A stretch of 64,000 nucleotides of DNA from assembly GCA_014740375.1 (NCBI GenBank), contig GCA_014740375.1_3041.1. One strand, given 5' to 3'. Under the pieces are notes generated by a model. That model ran no database searches, was not told the origin of the DNA, and saw only the letters and a program-made list of their open reading frames with translations. Every line of letters begins with the position of its first letter. The first letter of the stretch is position 1. The position numbers and the translations under genes were made by a program. Below, piece after piece: positions 6,077 to 63,341 of the stretch. Source of the DNA: a phage.

Positions 6077-6694
6077 ATGTACCACTTTGTATATGAAACA
6101 ACAAATCTAATAAATGGTAAAAAGTATATAGGAAAACACTCTACTGATGACTTGAATGACGGTTACCTTGGTTCCGGTAAGGCAATTCAGCAGGCTATAA
6201 AGAAATATGGTGAAAACAATTTCTCTAGAACAATACTAAAAGAGTTTAAAACTTCCGAAGAAGCGTACATGTATGAAGAAGAAATTATAACTCCTGAACT
6301 AATAAAAAGCAAAAATTATTATAATATGAAACCTGGTGGAATTGGTGGAATTGTTATGACTACAGAGGTTATAGCAAAGATGAAAGAATCTTCCGCTAAA
6401 AGATTTGAAAACTCACCAGGCACGGTATTAGGTAAAACTTGTTACACTAATGGAACTAAAAATATTTTTATTAAACCTGGAGAACTTGTTCCAGAAGGAT
6501 TTGTAAAAGGGATGGTTCATCCTAATAGAAAGTCCAGAAAAGGATGTAAAGTCAAACCGACTACCACAGGAACTTTTTGGGTCAATAATGGCGCAATAAA
6601 TAAATTAATACAACCAGACGGTATTATTCCCGACGGATTTATTAAAGGTCGTCTCATGAAAAGAGATTCTAAAGGCAAATTTAGTAAGGCATAA
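6077..6694 (+). CDS. segE: GIY-YIG family Seg homing endonuclease (205 aa)
   Basis: N-terminal GIY-YIG module (HFVYETTNLINGKKYIGKH ... YNMKPGG); located between inh and uvsW where T4 segE lies; symbol by position. Confidence 0.65.
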   Translation: MYHFVYETTNLINGKKYIGKHSTDDLNDGYLGSGKAIQQAIKKYGENNFSRTILKEFKTSEEAYMYEEEIITPELIKSKNYYNMKPGGIGGIVMTTEVIAKMKESSAKRFENSPGTVLGKTCYTNGTKNIFIKPGELVPEGFVKGMVHPNRKSRKGCKVKPTTTGTFWVNNGAINKLIQPDGIIPDGFIKGRLMKRDSKGKFSKA

Positions 6695-17050: not shown

Positions 17051-17081
17051 TTTGTGTTCCTCATGTTATGTCAGTAAGATT

Positions 17082-17111
17082 ATTATAACACAACACGAGG
17101 GACTTGTAAAC
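17082..17111 (-). promoter_or_regulatory. T4-type early promoter
   Basis: Minus strand GTTTAC, 18 bp, TATAAT; part of a 54-bp cassette repeated at 32381-32434. Confidence 0.6.
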
Positions 17112-25610: not shown

Positions 25611-25678
25611 TTTTATTCTCCAAGATGTTTAATTGCGGTACAGGTATATAATATCATATCCTGTACCAAAGTAAACAA

Positions 25679-26011: not shown

Positions 26012-26038
26012 TTTATTCTCCTTTGTTTGTGTAAGATA

Positions 26039-26068
26039 ATACTATCACAAAGGAGCTATACTGTAAAC
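26039..26068 (-). promoter_or_regulatory. T4-type early promoter
   Basis: Minus strand GTTTAC, 18 bp, TAGTAT. Confidence 0.45.
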
Positions 26069-26981: not shown

Positions 26982-27317
26982 TCACTTATAAAGACACGGA
27001 ATAGCTTTATAATGACAGGTAACGAATTTTTGTTTAATTTCTTTTGGCTGCTTAAGACCCAGAGCTACAAAAGGATGCGGAACATTTCGAATTTGACCAA
27101 CTGGAAGAGAAGTCAAATCACCAACTTCGCAGAAACCTTCAGGAACATCAGGACCGACAGAGTGAACTACACACAGTTCAGGAACTTCACCTTGAACACG
27201 TTTACCGATGATAAGTCCTGATTCTGTAACTTCTTCATCACCGGCTTGTGCAGGTTCAGAAACTAAAATAATATATTCACCGACAGCACGAATTGGTAGC
27301 TGTTGTACTTCAGACAT
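26982..27317 (-). CDS. 31: Co-chaperonin gp31 (GroES analogue)
   Basis: 111 aa; T4 length and position. Confidence 0.92.
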
Positions 27318-29068: not shown

Positions 29069-29130
29069 TTTGTTTTCCTCATTTGTTTTGGTAGAGCTAT
29101 AATATCACAACTCTACCAAAAAGTAAACTA

Positions 29131-32376: not shown

Positions 32377-32404
32377 AAAGTCCTCATGTTATGTCAGTAA
32401 GACT

Positions 32405-32434
32405 ACTATAACACAACACGAGGGACTTGTAAAC
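32405..32434 (-). promoter_or_regulatory. T4-type early promoter for alc
   Basis: Minus strand GTTTAC, 18 bp, TATAGT; 54-bp cassette near-identical to 17058-17111. Confidence 0.6.
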
Positions 32435-34054: not shown

Positions 34055-35231
34055 AAAAGTATTTTTTAAAACTCATCATAACTTTATCATCAACATCATT
34101 ATCAATCTGTGCAACAAGATAAGATGACAGTTCTACTTCTTGTGGCGCGGATTGAACATTATCAGAATTAAGATATTCACGAATCCAAGGATATGGATGT
34201 TTAACCGGAGCATCGGTAATTGGGCATGGAAGACCGCACTGTTTCATACGAGATACAGTTAAGTAATCAATAAAGCTCCACATGCTATTTGTATTTAATC
34301 CAGGAACATCGCCATCTTTAAATAAATGAACTGCCCAATCTTTTTCTTGGCGGTTAACTTCCATGAAAATATCAACTGCTTCTTGTTCACACTCTTGAGC
34401 AATTTTAACCCATTGACCGCCATCAGTACCAGATTGAAGTTGACGAATAATATATTGGGTGCCTTTAAGGTGAAGCTGTTCATCGCGTGCAATGAACTTC
34501 ATAATCTTGGCATTACCTTCCATGATTTCCATGTTCTTATGGAAGTTAAAGGTACATGCGAAAGATACATAAAAACGAATAGCTTCCAATGCGTTGATTA
34601 CATGCAAACAGAGGTAAAGAGATTTCATTAGCTCACGCTTCCAATATGTCTCATGCTCAATAGCATCTTCAATAACGTCTTCGTCTGCATTAATTTCTTT
34701 TTGGTATTCGATATCAGCTTTAGCGTTTTCCCAATAACGAGTTTTAATCAGAACATCATCATAATAACGTCCAATGGATTCAGCACGTTTCATAATAGCT
34801 TCATCTAATACAATTTCATCAAATACCTTCGATGGATCAGTATAAAGATTTCGCATGATATGAGTATATGAACGACTGTGAATAGTTTCACTAAAAGTCC
34901 ATGTAGCAACCCATGTATCAAGACTTGGGTCTGAAATTAATGACATAAGTACAGCAGATGGCGCGCGACCCTGAATACTATCTAAAAGTGATTGATACTT
35001 CAAGTTGTTAGTAAAAATATTTTGCTGATACTGAGGAAGCTTATTAAACTGTGCAGCATCCATCATCAAGTTTACTTCTTCAGGACGCCAGAAAAATGAT
35101 AATTGCTTTTCGGTTAAATCTTCAAAAACTTTATGACGTTGAATATCATAACGCGCAATACCAAGACCTGAACCAAAAAACATAGGTTCTTTTAAAACAT
35201 CAACTGGATTTGTATTAAAAACTGTGCTCAT
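34053..35231 (-). CDS. nrdB: Ribonucleotide reductase small subunit (uninterrupted)
   Basis: 392 aa continuous ORF with di-iron ligands; no intron interruption. Confidence 0.93.
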   Translation of the reverse strand: MSTVFNTNPVDVLKEPMFFGSGLGIARYDIQRHKVFEDLTEKQLSFFWRPEEVNLMMDAAQFNKLPQYQQNIFTNNLKYQSLLDSIQGRAPSAVLMSLISDPSLDTWVATWTFSETIHSRSYTHIMRNLYTDPSKVFDEIVLDEAIMKRAESIGRYYDDVLIKTRYWENAKADIEYQKEINADEDVIEDAIEHETYWKRELMKSLYLCLHVINALEAIRFYVSFACTFNFHKNMEIMEGNAKIMKFIARDEQLHLKGTQYIIRQLQSGTDGGQWVKIAQECEQEAVDIFMEVNRQEKDWAVHLFKDGDVPGLNTNSMWSFIDYLTVSRMKQCGLPCPITDAPVKHPYPWIREYLNSDNVQSAPQEVELSSYLVAQIDNDVDDKVMMSFKKYF

Positions 35232-35282
35232 AAATTTTCCGCTTAGTTAATAGTTGGTGACTCGTCCGTGAGTCAAATTATA

Positions 35283-37547
35283 TCATAATTTACAGGATGA
35301 ACAATCTTCAGCTTTTGGAGTTTCTATTTCATAATCATCAGTACCAGAACCATCGCGGGTATTATGATAATAGAAATTTTTTCCGCCAAAATACCAAAAA
35401 TACAAAAGGTCATCAATCATTATTGACATTGGAACCTTGCCTTTAGGGAAGATTTGGGGGTCATAGTATGTATTCGCCGAAGCTGATTGACATACCCATT
35501 TCAGCATAATAGCTACCTGCGTAAGATAAGGTTTATTACCTTTCTTAGCTAATTTCCATGTATAATCATAGAGGTCTATGTTATGCTCAATATTGGGCAC
35601 GACTTGATTAAAGGAGCCCTCTTTTGATTCTTTAACAGAGACTGGTCCACGTGGAGGCTCGATACCGTTTGTACTGTTAGAAACTTGGGAAGATGACTCA
35701 CATGGCATAAGTGCTGATAATGTGCTATTACGGATGCCAAAGAGCTTAAGGTCTTCCCGCAGCGACGACCAGTCACAAACGTATTTTGGAGCTGCGATTT
35801 GGTCAATCTTTTTATTGTACCAGTCGATAGGTAATTCGCCTCTAGACCAACGAGTGTCTGAATAATATTCGCAAGGTCCTTTTTCTTTGGCGAGCTTAAT
35901 GGATGCTTTAATGAGTCCATACTGTAATCTCTCAAATAGTTCATGTGTTAAATCGTTAGCATCTTCATAAGAAGCAAAGTTACTTGCCAGCCAAGCTGCA
36001 TAGTTAGTAACACCTACACCGAGGTTACGACGCTTTTTAGCTTTTTCTGCTTCAGGAACTGGATATCCTTGGTAATCCAAAAGATTATCAAGAGCACGAA
36101 CTTGGACTTCTGCCAATTCATTAATTTTATCTTGGTCTTGCCAGTCAAAATTATCCAGTACGAATGCAGAGAGAGTACACAATCCAATTTCAGCATCAGG
36201 ACTATTCACATCATTTGTTGGAATAGCAATTTCACAGCACAAGTTACTCTGACGAATAGGTGCCTTTTCACGAATAAACGGAGTATAGTTATTCGTATTA
36301 TCAATGAACTGTACATAAATTCTTGCTGTTCCTGAGCGTTCAGTCATGAGCAATTCAAATAGTTCACGGGCTTTAATACGCTTTTTACGAATATTAGGGT
36401 CTTTTTCTGCTGCTTCGTATAATTCACGGAAACGGTCTTGGTCTTTAAAATAAGAATAATAAAGCTCGCCACCCATTTCATGCGGACTGAACAAAGTAAT
36501 GTAATCGTTCTTTCCGAATCGTTCCATCATCAAATCATTCAGCTGAACACCATAATCCATATGACGAATGCGGTTTTCTTCTACGCCTTTGTTATTTTTC
36601 AAAACGAGAAGATTTTCAACTTCCAAATGCCAAATAGGATAATAAGCAGTAGCAGCGCCGCCACGAATTCCACCCTGTGAACATGATTTAACTGCAGTCT
36701 GAAAATGTTTCCAAAAAGGAATAACACCAGTATGGCGTACTTCACCCATGCCAATCTTAGAACCTTCGGCACGAATCATACCAACGTTAATACCAATTCC
36801 AGCGCGTTTAGAGATATATTCAACAATTGAAGCGGAAGCCTTATTAATAGACTTTAATGAATCACCTGCCTCAATAACAACGCATGAACTAAACTGTCGA
36901 GTCGGAGTACGACAACCAGCCATAATAGGAGTTGGCAGTGAAATCTGTCGAGTAGATACTGCTTCATAAAAACGGATAACATGTTTTAATCTATCAACAG
37001 GTTCATCTTGATGCAGTGCCATTCCAATAGCCATAAATGCAAACTGTGGAGTTTCATAAATTTGACCGGTGGTTTTATCTTTGACTAGATATTTTTCTTT
37101 TAATTGCATCGCTCCGGAATAAGTAAATTCCATATCCCGCTCGTGCTTAATTTTTGATTCTAAAAATGTAATTTCTTCTGCTGAATATTTTGACAACAAT
37201 TCAGGGTCGTATTTACCTTCATTTACACAGTAAGAAATATGGTCAATAAATGAACGCGGTTCATACTGCCCATAAACATGCTTACGAAGAGCAAACATTA
37301 AACAACGTGCAGCTACATATTGGTAATCAGGCTCTTCAACCGAAATAGAATTCGCAGCGGCCTTAATGACAATAGTCTGAATATCATCAGTTGTCATTCC
37401 ATCACGGAGATAAGATTTAATATTTTCATATAATTCATAAGGATCTACTGATGTTCCCTCAGCTGCCCAAGATAAAACTTTAATAATTTTTTGTGGGTCA
37501 AAGCTCTGAGAAACACCACTACTTTTGATAACATTAATTAATTGCAT
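35283..37547 (-). CDS. nrdA: Ribonucleotide reductase large subunit
   Basis: 754 aa; class Ia RNR. Confidence 0.95.
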   Translation of the reverse strand: MQLINVIKSSGVSQSFDPQKIIKVLSWAAEGTSVDPYELYENIKSYLRDGMTTDDIQTIVIKAAANSISVEEPDYQYVAARCLMFALRKHVYGQYEPRSFIDHISYCVNEGKYDPELLSKYSAEEITFLESKIKHERDMEFTYSGAMQLKEKYLVKDKTTGQIYETPQFAFMAIGMALHQDEPVDRLKHVIRFYEAVSTRQISLPTPIMAGCRTPTRQFSSCVVIEAGDSLKSINKASASIVEYISKRAGIGINVGMIRAEGSKIGMGEVRHTGVIPFWKHFQTAVKSCSQGGIRGGAATAYYPIWHLEVENLLVLKNNKGVEENRIRHMDYGVQLNDLMMERFGKNDYITLFSPHEMGGELYYSYFKDQDRFRELYEAAEKDPNIRKKRIKARELFELLMTERSGTARIYVQFIDNTNNYTPFIREKAPIRQSNLCCEIAIPTNDVNSPDAEIGLCTLSAFVLDNFDWQDQDKINELAEVQVRALDNLLDYQGYPVPEAEKAKKRRNLGVGVTNYAAWLASNFASYEDANDLTHELFERLQYGLIKASIKLAKEKGPCEYYSDTRWSRGELPIDWYNKKIDQIAAPKYVCDWSSLREDLKLFGIRNSTLSALMPCESSSQVSNSTNGIEPPRGPVSVKESKEGSFNQVVPNIEHNIDLYDYTWKLAKKGNKPYLTQVAIMLKWVCQSASANTYYDPQIFPKGKVPMSIMIDDLLYFWYFGGKNFYYHNTRDGSGTDDYEIETPKAEDCSSCKL

Positions 37548-39007: not shown

Positions 39008-40202
<1,195 letters not shown>

Positions 40203-40213
40203 ATTATCTCCTA

Positions 40214-40546
40214 TTAAAAAGGATCAGGAACATATCCGCTAGCTTTAATCATTTTAATTAACGTTAACATTCCTTTGTTAACTGCTCGTGAGATTTCATC
40301 AAAAACTTCATCACTAAAAAGTTCTAACACGCCCTTCTGAACTTTTAATTTACAGCCAACAATTTCTTCATCGCCTATAGTAAATTCATTACCACCAATT
40401 CCACCGAAAAACTTAATTACACCAGTTAACTGTCTTCCACGAGAATATGGGTCGTGTGATAAAGTAATATGAGTCACCCCGGGTACAGTTTTAAATTGGC
40501 AGCGAATATTTACTTGTGAAATTCCAGTTACATGAATGTCAGACAT
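40214..40546 (-). CDS. Hypothetical protein (frd.2 position)
   Basis: 110-aa ORF. Confidence 0.55.
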   Translation of the reverse strand: MSDIHVTGISQVNIRCQFKTVPGVTHITLSHDPYSRGRQLTGVIKFFGGIGGNEFTIGDEEIVGCKLKVQKGVLELFSDEVFDEISRAVNKGMLTLIKMIKASGYVPDPF

Positions 40547-40799: not shown

Positions 40800-40824
40800 T
40801 TTATTCTCCTTAGTTGATAAGGCT

Positions 40825-40854
40825 ATAGTATCACTACCATAGCCTGTTGTAAAC
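40825..40854 (-). promoter_or_regulatory. T4-type early promoter
   Basis: Minus strand GTTTAC, 18 bp, TACTAT. Confidence 0.5.
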
Positions 40855-40856
40855 AA

Positions 40857-41117
40857 TTATTTTTGAATTTTATCAAGCCACTTACCAAGCTTAATCATTT
40901 CTTTAGTAGCCTTTTCCATACTTCTGAACTTAACCAATAGAGGATAGGTATCGACACCCATAACTAAGCTAGTTACAAGACTGTGTTCACCCACAAGCCA
41001 TAACGAATACGTTTGAATATCGAGCCCGTAATTTCTGTCTTTATGGACCCGTACACCCATCACTTCAAATTTCTCACTAGCTTTTTCTACCGCATCCAGG
41101 AAATCATCTTTAGTCAT
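40857..41117 (-). CDS. Hypothetical protein (86 aa; alternative start 41159)
   Basis: ORF immediately downstream of the 126-aa ORF. Confidence 0.45.
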   Translation of the reverse strand: MTKDDFLDAVEKASEKFEVMGVRVHKDRNYGLDIQTYSLWLVGEHSLVTSLVMGVDTYPLLVKFRSMEKATKEMIKLGKWLDKIQK

Positions 41118-41118
41118 A

Positions 41119-41499
41119 TTAGGCCTTAAAAGTTTTTCGCAAAAGTTCAATGATTTCATCTACATTGTTTTCGTCAACAATGCAGTGAATTTTTGTTACG
41201 CCAGAAACCTTGTCTTTGACTTCATCTTTTTCAGAAGTCGGTTCTTTATACTCACGAAAACAATGAAATTCGTCTTCGCAAATTTCTAAAAGTCTATCTT
41301 TGAGGTAAAAATGCTTTCCATTTGCGCATTCAATGTGTTTTACTGCTTTATATCCATTAGCGACGGAAACTTCTTTAACTTCAAACCATCCGCCATTATC
41401 TCGAATCGCTTTAACTATTGATGAATTAGAACGTGGGCTATAATTAATAAATGTATCAATAAGTCTTGGAACAAGCTCATACTTTTTACCGGTATACAT
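41119..41499 (-). CDS. Hypothetical protein
   Basis: 126-aa ORF. Confidence 0.5.
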   Translation of the reverse strand: MYTGKKYELVPRLIDTFINYSPRSNSSIVKAIRDNGGWFEVKEVSVANGYKAVKHIECANGKHFYLKDRLLEICEDEFHCFREYKEPTSEKDEVKDKVSGVTKIHCIVDENNVDEIIELLRKTFKA

Positions 41500-41772: not shown

Positions 41773-41815
41773 ATTATTTTCCTCTTTAATCATCAGCAGT
41801 ATTGCCGATAGTTGT

Positions 41816-41845
41816 ATAGTACCATAGAAGGACAAGGATGTAAAC
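41816..41845 (-). promoter_or_regulatory. T4-type early promoter (cassette family B)
   Basis: Minus strand A/T-rich upstream tract, GTTTAC, 18 bp, TACTAT; flanks shared with 58928-58957 and 62736-62765. Confidence 0.55.
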
Positions 41846-41877
41846 CGTTTTGTGAAAAAAATTTTTGAAATAAAAAA

Positions 41878-41896
41878 GGGGACCTCTAGGGTCCCC
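41878..41896 (-). terminator. Rho-independent terminator of gene 32
   Basis: GGGGACC-loop-GGTCCCC followed by TTTTTTATTT on minus strand. Confidence 0.65.
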
Positions 41897-42827: not shown

Positions 42828-42926
42828 TTTTATTTCCTTTTTAATTTAATTAACAGTTGGTGCTATGACGATGTATGACCTCATAGCTGGTCAGTGAGAT
42901 AATTATAATCTATTTATAATAAGCAA
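42828..42926 (-). promoter_or_regulatory. Gene 32 leader and promoter region
   Basis: Late promoter TATAAATA on minus strand (plus 42910-42917), adjacent TATAAT and MotA-box-like TTGCTTA, then A/U-rich leader TTAAATTAAAAAGGAAATAAAAATG. Confidence 0.55.
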
Positions 42927-58250: not shown

Positions 58251-58886
58251 TCACAGTTCAGATGCTACAGTGATTACTGCTTCAATGTTTTCTGCCGAGC
58301 GTTTAATGTCAAGATACACATTACCGTTTTTAGCGATTTTACAAGACATTCCGATGTCAGTAAATTTCTGAATATGATGTTCCATCATTTTGTATCCAAA
58401 AATTCGCATATTTCCATTGTTGTTAATTTCAAAATTACGAATTCCGTGAGTGCGTTTTTCTAAAATAGCAAGATAGTTACTGCGATAAGTTTCAACCTTT
58501 TTAAGAACAAATCCATTTTCATCCAAAAGTTTTAACATGAGGTCTTTATCTTCTTCCATATCAGAAGTAATCTCGCGAGCTTTACGAGTTGCTCGTTTTT
58601 TCAGCAGTTCCGGAGCATTTTCCTGTGCGTATAAAGTTGCTGCGTTTGAAATAATATCCTGAGCTTCACCTGTAATGATTAATCCATCACCAGATTTCTC
58701 TACCAGGCCTTTTTTAATCAATACCCCAATATTACTATTAACTACTGCGTTACCTAAATCTGGATGCACCTCACGAACTTCTGCAGCTGTAATGAAATCT
58801 TTCTTAGCAATGGTAATTAAAATCGCAGCAGTTTTTTCATTCAGAACATCGTTAGAAGCTTTGATGATGTAAGTTACTTTAGACAT
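58251..58886 (-). CDS. motA: Middle-transcription activator MotA
   Basis: 211 aa; T4 length; own early promoter and GGAG Shine-Dalgarno. Confidence 0.92.
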   Translation of the reverse strand: MSKVTYIIKASNDVLNEKTAAILITIAKKDFITAAEVREVHPDLGNAVVNSNIGVLIKKGLVEKSGDGLIITGEAQDIISNAATLYAQENAPELLKKRATRKAREITSDMEEDKDLMLKLLDENGFVLKKVETYRSNYLAILEKRTHGIRNFEINNNGNMRIFGYKMMEHHIQKFTDIGMSCKIAKNGNVYLDIKRSAENIEAVITVASEL

Positions 58887-58927
58887 TTTCTAATCTCCGT
58901 AATTCTGTATCAGTAGTTGATAGTTGT

Positions 58928-58957
58928 ATAGTACCACAGTATGCTTTGGTTGTAAAC
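58928..58957 (-). promoter_or_regulatory. Early promoter for motA (cassette family B)
   Basis: Minus strand A/T-rich upstream tract, GTTTAC, 18 bp, TACTAT. Confidence 0.6.
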
Positions 58958-58988
58958 CGTTTTGTGAAAAAATTTTAAAATAAAAAAA

Positions 58989-59008
58989 GGGAGAGCCTCG
59001 GCTCTCCC
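58989..59008 (-). terminator. Rho-independent terminator downstream of gene 52 operon
   Basis: GGGAGAGCC-loop-GGCTCTCCC followed by TTTTTTTA on minus strand. Confidence 0.65.
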
Positions 59009-59013
59009 TAAAA

Positions 59014-62219: not shown

Positions 62220-62249
62220 ATAGTACCACGGAAGAACAGTCTTGTAAAC
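62220..62249 (-). promoter_or_regulatory. T4-type early promoter
   Basis: Minus strand GTTTAC, 18 bp, TACTAT. Confidence 0.5.
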
Positions 62250-62434: not shown

Positions 62435-62698
62435 TCATAGCTCAATCTCAGCGATTTTCATTTCATTACTATTAATAGCCTCTTTAAGACTATCTGAAAG
62501 AATTACATTCCAGTGGTCATTCATATGACCATTAACTAAGCGTGTAATTTCTTCAGGAGTTGAAAAATAAGGCTGATCAGACTCCCAATGCGATAATCCT
62601 AAGCGAGTATAAATCATGCCTTCATCATCGCTCGAATATTCAACTGACACAAACTCATCAGTTATTTTATGTTTAGCGTAATAAAATTTAAATTTCAT
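62435..62698 (-). CDS. Hypothetical protein (87 aa from MKFKF)
   Basis: ATG with GGAG Shine-Dalgarno downstream of an early promoter; track start is TTG. Confidence 0.5.
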   Translation of the reverse strand: MKFKFYYAKHKITDEFVSVEYSSDDEGMIYTRLGLSHWESDQPYFSTPEEITRLVNGHMNDHWNVILSDSLKEAINSNEMKIAEIEL

Positions 62699-62735
62699 TT
62701 TATTCTCCAAATCCGTATCAGTAGTTGATAGTTGT

Positions 62736-62765
62736 ATAGTACCACGGTCCTTGTGGTATGTAAAC
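62736..62765 (-). promoter_or_regulatory. T4-type early promoter (cassette family B)
   Basis: Minus strand A/T-rich upstream tract, GTTTAC, 18 bp, TACTAT. Confidence 0.55.
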
Positions 62766-62783
62766 CGTTTTGTGAAAAAATTT

Positions 62784-63341
62784 TTAAATGGAAAGATACC
62801 ATCCGTTGTAGTTGCTTTTTCTTACAACCTTACGAAGGTCTTCTCTGTCACCGATGAACTTCGGAGTGTACTGGATGACACCTGGATGAATTTCTTTAGT
62901 GTTGAATATAATTATACAGTCAGCGACTTGATGATTTAGAATGGGCCCTAAATTTATTCCAGAACCATATGGATACTCTCCGCTGCATCCCGTTGTTACC
63001 GAAATCCAACGCGAGTCAGTTTGATGTGTTTTGACTTCTACACGAAGCCCGCAATATTTTGGATGCGCTAAAACATCCCATGCATACGTGTACGGATCAT
63101 CGACATTTTCTTGGCCTTTATTGACATATCCGCTTAGCCAATCTGCCACAAAAAACTCTGCGTACACAGCGATACGGCATCTTTCGATAACTTCTGCTTT
63201 ATCCTGGTTCGGGTTTTGTTTTAAAGAGTATCTTGCTGTATCAGCAATTTTGACCTTCATTTCACTAGTCAAGTCACTGTTCGATAGGGTAAATGTCGGA
63301 ATCTGAAATAGTCTCTGTAACCCAGGATTCGTTTTCTGCAT
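62784..63341 (-). CDS. denB: Endonuclease IV-like protein
   Basis: 185 aa, same length and map position as T4 denB (upstream of ndd cluster); assignment by length and synteny. Confidence 0.6.
   Translation of the reverse strand: MQKTNPGLQRLFQIPTFTLSNSDLTSEMKVKIADTARYSLKQNPNQDKAEVIERCRIAVYAEFFVADWLSGYVNKGQENVDDPYTYAWDVLAHPKYCGLRVEVKTHQTDSRWISVTTGCSGEYPYGSGINLGPILNHQVADCIIIFNTKEIHPGVIQYTPKFIGDREDLRKVVRKSNYNGWYLSI

Follow-up and report, generated by a model that had tools for sequence, protein, structure and literature searches.

What kind of element recurs immediately upstream of motA in this phage, with flanks that scarcely vary around a core that does, and how have its copies come to share what they share? 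The window, by which we mean the whole stretch of 64,000 nucleotides of phage DNA that was analysed, belongs to a Tequatrovirus: it is 98% identical to vB_Eco_Geo over the motA region and colinear with T4 from ~105 to 168.9 kb. Taken as a whole, the account developed below is highly probable, namely that the element is a T4-like immediate-early promoter joined to a leader, present in paralogous copies whose spacers have been exchanged and at whose leaders modules have been inserted.

A repeat in three copies and its promoter anatomy

In a search of the whole window, GTAAACCGTTTTGTGAAAAAA was found exactly at 41840, 58952 and 62760 on the plus strand, with no fourth match in the window at up to three mismatches and none in 100 shuffles, and TAGTTGTATAGTACCA was found exactly at 41809, 58921 and 62729 on the same strand, its other matches in the window all having three mismatches. 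The exact blocks shared by the three copies measure 21 nt and 16 nt, and the likeness among the copies spans ~90-120 bp, including part of the leader. The repeat is real, and a chance match is ruled out. Read on the minus strand, all three copies have the layout TTTTTTCACAAAACG-GTTTAC-15 nt-TGG-TACTAT-ACAACTATC, in which 42 of 46 flank positions are invariant versus 3 of 15 in the spacer (Fisher p = 3.7e-7); pairwise, the three spacers agree at 4-7 of 15 positions, which is approximately chance. The first-pass annotation had proposed three copies with common blocks, conserved flanks around a variable spacer, and a minus-strand A/T tract followed by GTTTAC and TACTAT, all of which hold at the three loci, the last in agreement with the published T4 early promoter.

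In the sigma-70 register, each copy consists of TTTACA, a 17-bp spacer, TACTAT and a TG at -15/-14. An exact GTTTAC lies 18 bp 5' of the -10 hexamer in every copy, and the last three bases of that interval are TGG, an extended -10 (TGn) found in all three; with the -35 hexamer read as TTTACA, the 18-bp spacing reported in the first-pass annotation is refined to the canonical and optimal 17 bp. TACTAT agrees with TATAAT at four of six positions. Of the 14 specified positions of the UP-element consensus AAAWWTWTTTTNNNAAA (PMC2412878), 13 are matched by the upstream block AAAATTTTTTCACAAAA, in a register 1-2 nt off the E. coli position. From this geometry, transcription is predicted to start at the A seven bases past the -10 hexamer (58921, 41809 and 62729, minus strand), and the promoter is probably of high strength. 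A hairpin of the PeSL kind was not found consistently in the promoter core (-36 to +15), which folds weakly in the three copies (z -0.6, -1.7 and -2.4), unlike the cores of several other early promoters in the window, and an Rfam search of the whole window returned no known RNA family.

The leaders are 35-40 nt long and carry a GGAG Shine-Dalgarno sequence. Within the motA leader, GGAGAUUAGAA agrees at 10 of 11 positions with the RegB/S1 consensus GGAGAAUAAAA (GGAGRAYARAA), and GGAGAATAAAATG, at the end of the leader of the copy at 62719, is an exact match to it; motA RNA is a good RegB substrate (PMC1702504). The motA mRNA, whose product is an early protein, is known to be cut by RegB within the Shine-Dalgarno sequence (PMC2988021); at the other copies RegB cleavage is a prediction from the leader sequence. 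The copies lie between gp32 and FRD3, motA.1 and MotA, and DenB and the 87-aa ORF, so that the three downstream genes are those named earlier, and, here as in T4, the neighbouring genes all read on the minus strand. Two copies sit behind intrinsic terminators whose T runs continue into the A/T tract 5' of the UP element; among T4-like phages, a terminator is a conserved feature 3' of gene 32 (PMC1524935). No terminator hairpin was found upstream of the denB-proximal copy, where the denB stop codon is at 62784-62786. The TGn, the near-consensus UP element, the two upstream terminators and the RegB-type Shine-Dalgarno sequence are parts of the cassette beyond those first described. The gene 32 terminator itself occurs in two forms, in which the central part of the hairpin is inverted (GGGGACCCTAGAGGTCCCC versus GGGGACCTCTAGGGTCCCC) and the stem is kept (T2 is among the records).

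Table 1 Positions of the promoter copies, their elements and adjacent features in the window; transcript starts and leaders are predicted.
Feature	Position	Strand	Remarks
motA copy, cassette	58911-58976	-	same sequence in T4 at 163.67 kb
motA copy, UP element AAAATTTTTTCACAAAA	58976-58960	-	
motA copy, GTTTAC	58957-58952	-	
motA copy, 15-nt spacer	58951-58937	-	allele S1
motA copy, TGG	58936-58934	-	
motA copy, TACTAT	58933-58928	-	predicted start A 58921
motA leader (predicted)	58884-58921	-	35 nt; GGAG 58898-58895, ATG 58886-58884
MotA	58251-58886	-	211 aa; PF09114 and PF09158
Intrinsic terminator of motA.1 transcript	58988-59009	-	9-bp stem and T run; annotated terminator in MT682714
frd.3 copy, cassette	41806-41870	-	directly behind gene 32 terminator
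frd.3 copy, GTTTAC	41845-41840	-	
frd.3 copy, spacer	41839-41825	-	allele S4
frd.3 copy, TGG	41824-41822	-	
frd.3 copy, TACTAT	41821-41816	-	predicted start A 41809
FRD3	ATG 41772	-	75 aa; PF05798
Gene 32 intrinsic terminator	41878-41896	-	7-bp stem; annotated terminator in MK373786
denB-proximal copy, cassette	62719-62785	-	
denB-proximal copy, UP	62784-62768	-	
denB-proximal copy, GTTTAC	62765-62760	-	
denB-proximal copy, spacer	62759-62745	-	allele S3
denB-proximal copy, TGG	62744-62742	-	
denB-proximal copy, TACTAT	62741-62736	-	predicted start A 62729
Leader of 87-aa ORF (predicted)	62696-62729	-	GGAGAATAAAA 62708-62698, into ATG 62698-62696
87-aa ORF	62435-62698	-	phrog_2390
Related early promoter, GTTTAC-18-TACTAT, other flanks	40825-40854	-	upstream of frd.1 homologue
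Related early promoter, GTTTAC-18-TACTAT, then TACCCTATCAACTA	62220-62249	-	spacer S5, recurs in T4 imm.1 family copy

Promoter class and strand

The same cassette occurs in T4 (NC_000866) at the orthologous sites 146875 (frd.3), 163673 (motA) and 167086 (ndd.6), and three further full members at 27080 (imm.1), 55384 (nrdC.10) and 70696 (e.8) bring the T4 family to six. T4 early promoters (Liebig and Rueger 1989, Wilkens and Rueger 1994 and Miller et al. 2003, as cited in PMC2988021 and PMC1524935) combine an A-rich UP region, GTTTAC at -36 to -31 and a -10 hexamer, with a GT-rich stretch 5' of -12 (PMC1524935); they form a UP/-35/TGn/-10 class that competes extremely well for the host polymerase (PMC2988021). 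All three copies in the window have GTTTAC, TGn followed by TAnnnT and an A/T-rich UP region, 5' of a prereplicative gene on the same strand. Agreement with the published T4 consensus, together with the same cassette at orthologous T4 sites, bears out the earlier assignment to an early promoter type. Several members have been annotated before: -35/-10 signals at the T4 e.8 (msp1) promoter in L13089, a terminator and -35/-10 signals at nrdC.10 in U76612, and a promoter at the motA-site copy, with a terminator just upstream, in MT682714. A 100-nt cassette query matched 568 phage records, typically at ~8 places per genome. The element is thus a classical T4 early promoter that is already described and annotated and, as a promoter, is nothing new. 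Across 28 early-promoter-like sites of T4 outside the family, the consensus is tttca.aaAgtt-GTTTAC and TAttATa..c.tatcaa.ta, and since this general consensus is similar, the family flanks appear as the sharpest version of a general pattern; CACAAAACG and ACAACTATC are specific to the cassette family.

Each copy would act as an immediate-early promoter on the minus strand, used by E. coli sigma-70 RNA polymerase in its unmodified form. The near-consensus UP element AAAATTTTTTCACAAAA would be bound by the alpha C-terminal domains, and sigma region 4 would contact (G)TTTACA, region 3 the TGn and region 2 TACTAT. Fused to a short leader, in which the GGAG Shine-Dalgarno sequence would be the site of RegB/S1 cleavage, the promoter could deliver a brief burst of expression right after infection, and the intrinsic terminator behind which two of the copies sit may provide insulation from upstream transcription.

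Other readings of the repeat can be weighed against these features. Were the conserved blocks to serve rightward transcription of the plus strand, whether as promoter, terminator or protein-binding site, the relevant signal at motA could be a weak TTGATA-17-TATGCT at 58917-58945 (9/12, no TG), but 9/12 matches number 36 against 31.8 expected in shuffles, which is no excess. In addition, no credible ORF follows on the plus strand, the T run of the hairpins at 58988-59009 and 41878-41896 is present on the minus strand alone, and every T4 gene annotated in these regions reads on the minus strand; we give a plus-strand function practically no credence. A class other than early, be it the MotA/AsiA-dependent middle class or the gp55 late class, is extremely unlikely for these copies. 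Middle promoters have, in place of the -35 element, a MotA box of the form (a/t)(a/t)(a/t)TGCTTtA, which has its centre at -30 and lies 12+/-1 bp from the -10 hexamer (PMC2988021), whereas TGCTT occurs in none of the three spacers (minus strand), a good -35 GTTTAC is present, and the first expression of motA cannot depend on MotA; likewise, the late motif TATAAATA is absent, the sequence in its place being TACTATAC. Finally, the copies could be functionless, neutral remains of DNA that was duplicated recently, and a similarity of ~90-120 bp that includes part of the leader is what duplicated DNA would look like. However, the flanks contacted by RNA polymerase are those with 42 of 46 invariant positions and the spacer is at chance identity, the blocks are conserved at orthologous sites in hundreds of genomes, and the copies always lie immediately 5' of a minus-strand ORF. 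Because conservation is non-uniform, neutral duplication can be regarded as excluded for all practical purposes.

Reading the repeat as a T4-type early promoter improves the annotation of the window by providing likely transcript starts at the three positions predicted above. The phage uses the classical T4 early promoter before motA, frd.3 and the denB-proximal ORF, and these three genes would be immediate-early, with leaders predicted to be RegB-sensitive for at least two of them, motA and the 87-aa ORF.

Two sites that the first-pass annotation had listed as partial copies (40825-40854 and 62220-62249) are indeed GTTTAC-18-TACTAT sites on the minus strand, with different flanks. At the former, the beginning of the -10 hexamer falls inside an 11-bp hairpin (z = -2.8). 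This site (40804-40854) and the early-promoter-like sites at 29078-29128, 25626-25676, 26018-26068 and 32384-32434 (all minus strand) have an inverted repeat whose arms lie in the spacer and just 3' of the -10 hexamer, so that the -10 is enclosed or overlapped by the hairpin (DNA fold z -2.5 to -5.7). At 26068, and with less clarity at 62249, the Shine-Dalgarno sequence is part of the downstream arm; at such sites, the sequence would be sequestered in read-through transcripts and not in those started at the promoter. The T4 promoter pair 20612/57990 differs by a compensated change, GACAAGACT/AGTCTTGTC versus GACAAGATT/AATCTTGTC. Another group, at window positions 17061-17111 and 32384-32434 (minus strand) and at T4 123093 and 136336, shares the spacer AAGTCCCTCGTGTTGTGT without change, together with the block AnTCTTACTGACATAACATGAGGA downstream; the window pair is presumably the first of the cassette families distinguished earlier.

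Compared with T4, the window phage is without four mobile segments (window 34555/34558, 35231-35287, 38413/38414 and 42890-42926), namely the nrdB intron (T4 138458-139057), nrdB.1-mobE (T4 139720-140419), the td intron that carries I-TevI (T4 143547-144563) and, from the interval between genes 32 and 59, segG. ORFs of 81 and 110 aa (39957-40546) and of 100 aa (40857-41159) that are absent from T4 lie between frd and frd.2, in stretches inserted relative to T4 at 39976-40535 and 40813-41126; the frd.1 promoter, beside the second insertion, is an early-promoter variant that differs from T4's.

Spacer alleles and proposed exchange between copies

The gene 32-frd.3 intergenic region is nearly identical in the window phage, T4, T2, ime09, R5505 and EPIMRB01 but for the 15-nt spacer, which occurs among these six phages in four unrelated versions. 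The alleles were counted by BLAST searches of a phage collection with chimeric 85-nt queries (>=95% identity; ~505-534 records); a scan of IMG/VR and metagenomes gave only 7 and 16 stretches, respectively, and allele frequencies are therefore taken from the phage collection. At the frd.3 site, S4 was found in 319 records, S2 in 100, S3 in 69 and S1 in 55. Each of these alleles is the resident spacer of a paralogous copy, S1 (AACCAAAGCATACTG) at motA, S2 (AAGCATAAAGCTTTA) at nrdC.10, S3 (ATACCACAAGGACCG) at denB/ndd.6 and S4 (ATCCTTGTCCTTCCA) at e.8, and a further allele, S5 (AAGACTGTTCTTCCA), is common to two T4 promoters with different flanks. Spacer polymorphism is visible only at the frd.3 site, the other family loci mostly retaining their own single spacer. 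At the denB site the spacer is constant and the flank blocks vary, BCH953P4, for example, having TACTATTACCCTATC.

That each frd.3 allele is a paralogue's resident spacer points to exchange between copies, and on the simplest reading of the sequences, short patches were exchanged ectopically from one paralogue to another, the identical flanks masking the end points. These flanks provide homology on a 20-bp scale that the phage's own recombination system apparently uses, and spacers would move between copies by ectopic gene conversion. We lean towards a broader proposition, that the early promoters of T-even phages make up a recombining, multigene-like family in which UP/-35, spacer, -10/start and leader/Shine-Dalgarno blocks are swapped by short-patch ectopic gene conversion, with the 32-frd.3 promoter as a recurrent recipient and with the same blocks serving as joints for modules of an ORF plus promoter. 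In the accessible literature, no description of spacer-allele sharing or of leader-bounded insertions was found for T4 proper, and these would be a modest addition to a known promoter. Four discrete 15-nt alleles at one locus, the alien ones traceable to paralogues, offer a simple, countable marker of ectopic recombination, and if the broader proposition is true, spacer swapping would be a new readout of that process and the PeSL model would be extended from the RB49 group to T4 proper.

The homing endonuclease SegG, whose gene adjoins gene 32, was considered as a link to the frd.3 polymorphism and rejected, no association being visible: four isolates with four alleles are all without segG, while T4 has it.

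Shared spacers might also arise without exchange, through convergent selection or ancient polymorphism at each site, with the flanks kept by RNA polymerase contacts alone. The generic consensus of the 28 non-family T4 sites already tends towards the family flanks, so that part of the flank identity reflects functional consensus, and most loci keep one spacer. Yet four unrelated 15-mers each recur nearly identically at two loci, and convergence on four arbitrary 15-mers is implausible because spacer sequence is weakly constrained in sigma-70 promoters; moreover, the denB site is the converse mosaic, with the same spacer in different flank blocks, and S5 is common to promoters whose flanks differ. 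Independent origin at each site is, on balance, unlikely, although ancient polymorphism may account for part of the pattern. There is a slimmer chance still that the cassettes are true mobile elements targeted by a dedicated site-specific recombinase, a possibility that Arbiol et al. raise for PeSLs (PMC2839356) and to which the precise placing of insertion joints in conserved leader/Shine-Dalgarno repeats would conform. No recombinase is associated with the cassettes, however, and a dedicated enzyme is improbable because the junction repeats vary between events (CTATCAAATAAATGAACTGAAAC, GGAGAATAAAATGAAAACT and AATGAAA), which fits homology or microhomology better than one defined site; T4 recombination operates on short stretches of homology (Singer 1982, via PMC2839356).

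Insertions at the leader and comparison with known systems

Across phages and loci, at least four unrelated ORFs stand behind the same promoter, leader and Shine-Dalgarno sequence (...TATCAACTGATACGGATTTGGAGAATAAAATG), the break falling at the start codon. In OBRH01000009, for example, an extra ORF of ~75 aa and a second early promoter lie between the motA cassette and motA, with the repeat CTATCAAATAAATGAACTGAAAC on either side, and in phage Nami two ORFs and a second early promoter lie between the nrdC.10 cassette and nrdC.10, flanked by GGAGAATAAAATGAAAACT. These arrangements suggest that modules of an ORF plus promoter enter at the cassette leader. The idea of a portable module, put forward in the first-pass annotation, gains from this comparison, in which promoter and leader stand before unrelated ORFs, spacers are shared and modules appear to have been placed at the leader; it also supports the view that T4-like phages gain and lose small genes at repeated regulatory cassettes and not at random breaks.

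The insert of OBRH01000009.1 is at 6250-6490 and its ORF begins MKFKIENEIV, that of Nami (325-734) encodes a 49-aa ORF and a DUF4031 protein, and the second early promoter after each insert is of another sub-type. The 87-aa ORF is intact in the window phage, and T4 has at 167023-166997, just upstream of ndd.6, an unannotated 8-codon remnant (MKIAEIEL-stop). Its loss from T4 is an in-frame deletion between two AATGAAA repeats, which rules out a cassette-bounded swap as the cause.

In relation to T4 Pe promoters, the sequence 5' of frd.3, motA and ndd.6 is identical and nothing essential differs; the differences are the spacer at frd.3 (S4 in the window phage versus S2 in T4) and the intact 87-aa ORF versus the T4 remnant. 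Strong sigma-70 promoters with UP elements (the rrnB P1 type; T7 A1, lambda PL) share the UP match of 13/14, the 17-bp spacer and the predicted use of host holoenzyme alone, without phage factors, but here UP, -35, TGn and -10 are all combined and the -35 is GTTTAC(A), not TTGACA. Alt-dependent ADP-ribosylation of alpha can stimulate some T4 early promoters (PMC2988021).

The PeSLs of RB49 and phi1 (PMC2839356) are likewise repeated strong early promoters with an A/T-rich upstream region before small ORFs, and their repeats act as homology for the insertion, deletion and replacement of ORF modules, for which the evidence here is comparative. Every PeSL includes a stable stem-loop that acts as terminator or attenuator. 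The sequences are not homologous, GTTTAC/TACTAT here contrasting with the sigma-70 consensus and GGGG...CCCC stems of PeSLs, and Arbiol et al. (2010) treat the T-even elements as analogues, not homologues, built on T4 early promoters. Further differences from PeSLs as described there are that the stem-loop here is upstream and at two of the three copies, with a weakly folding core (z -0.6 to -2.4), and that the accessible part of PMC2839356 does not describe spacer-only exchange for PeSLs. Lambdoid morons (Hendrix et al. 2000, via PMC2839356) are similar in being single ORFs with their own promoter, and sometimes a terminator, between resident genes. Morons, according to the same source, are thought to be inserted by illegitimate recombination, with regulatory sequences that are not a vehicle of mobility, whereas the joints described here lie in the repeated promoter and leader.
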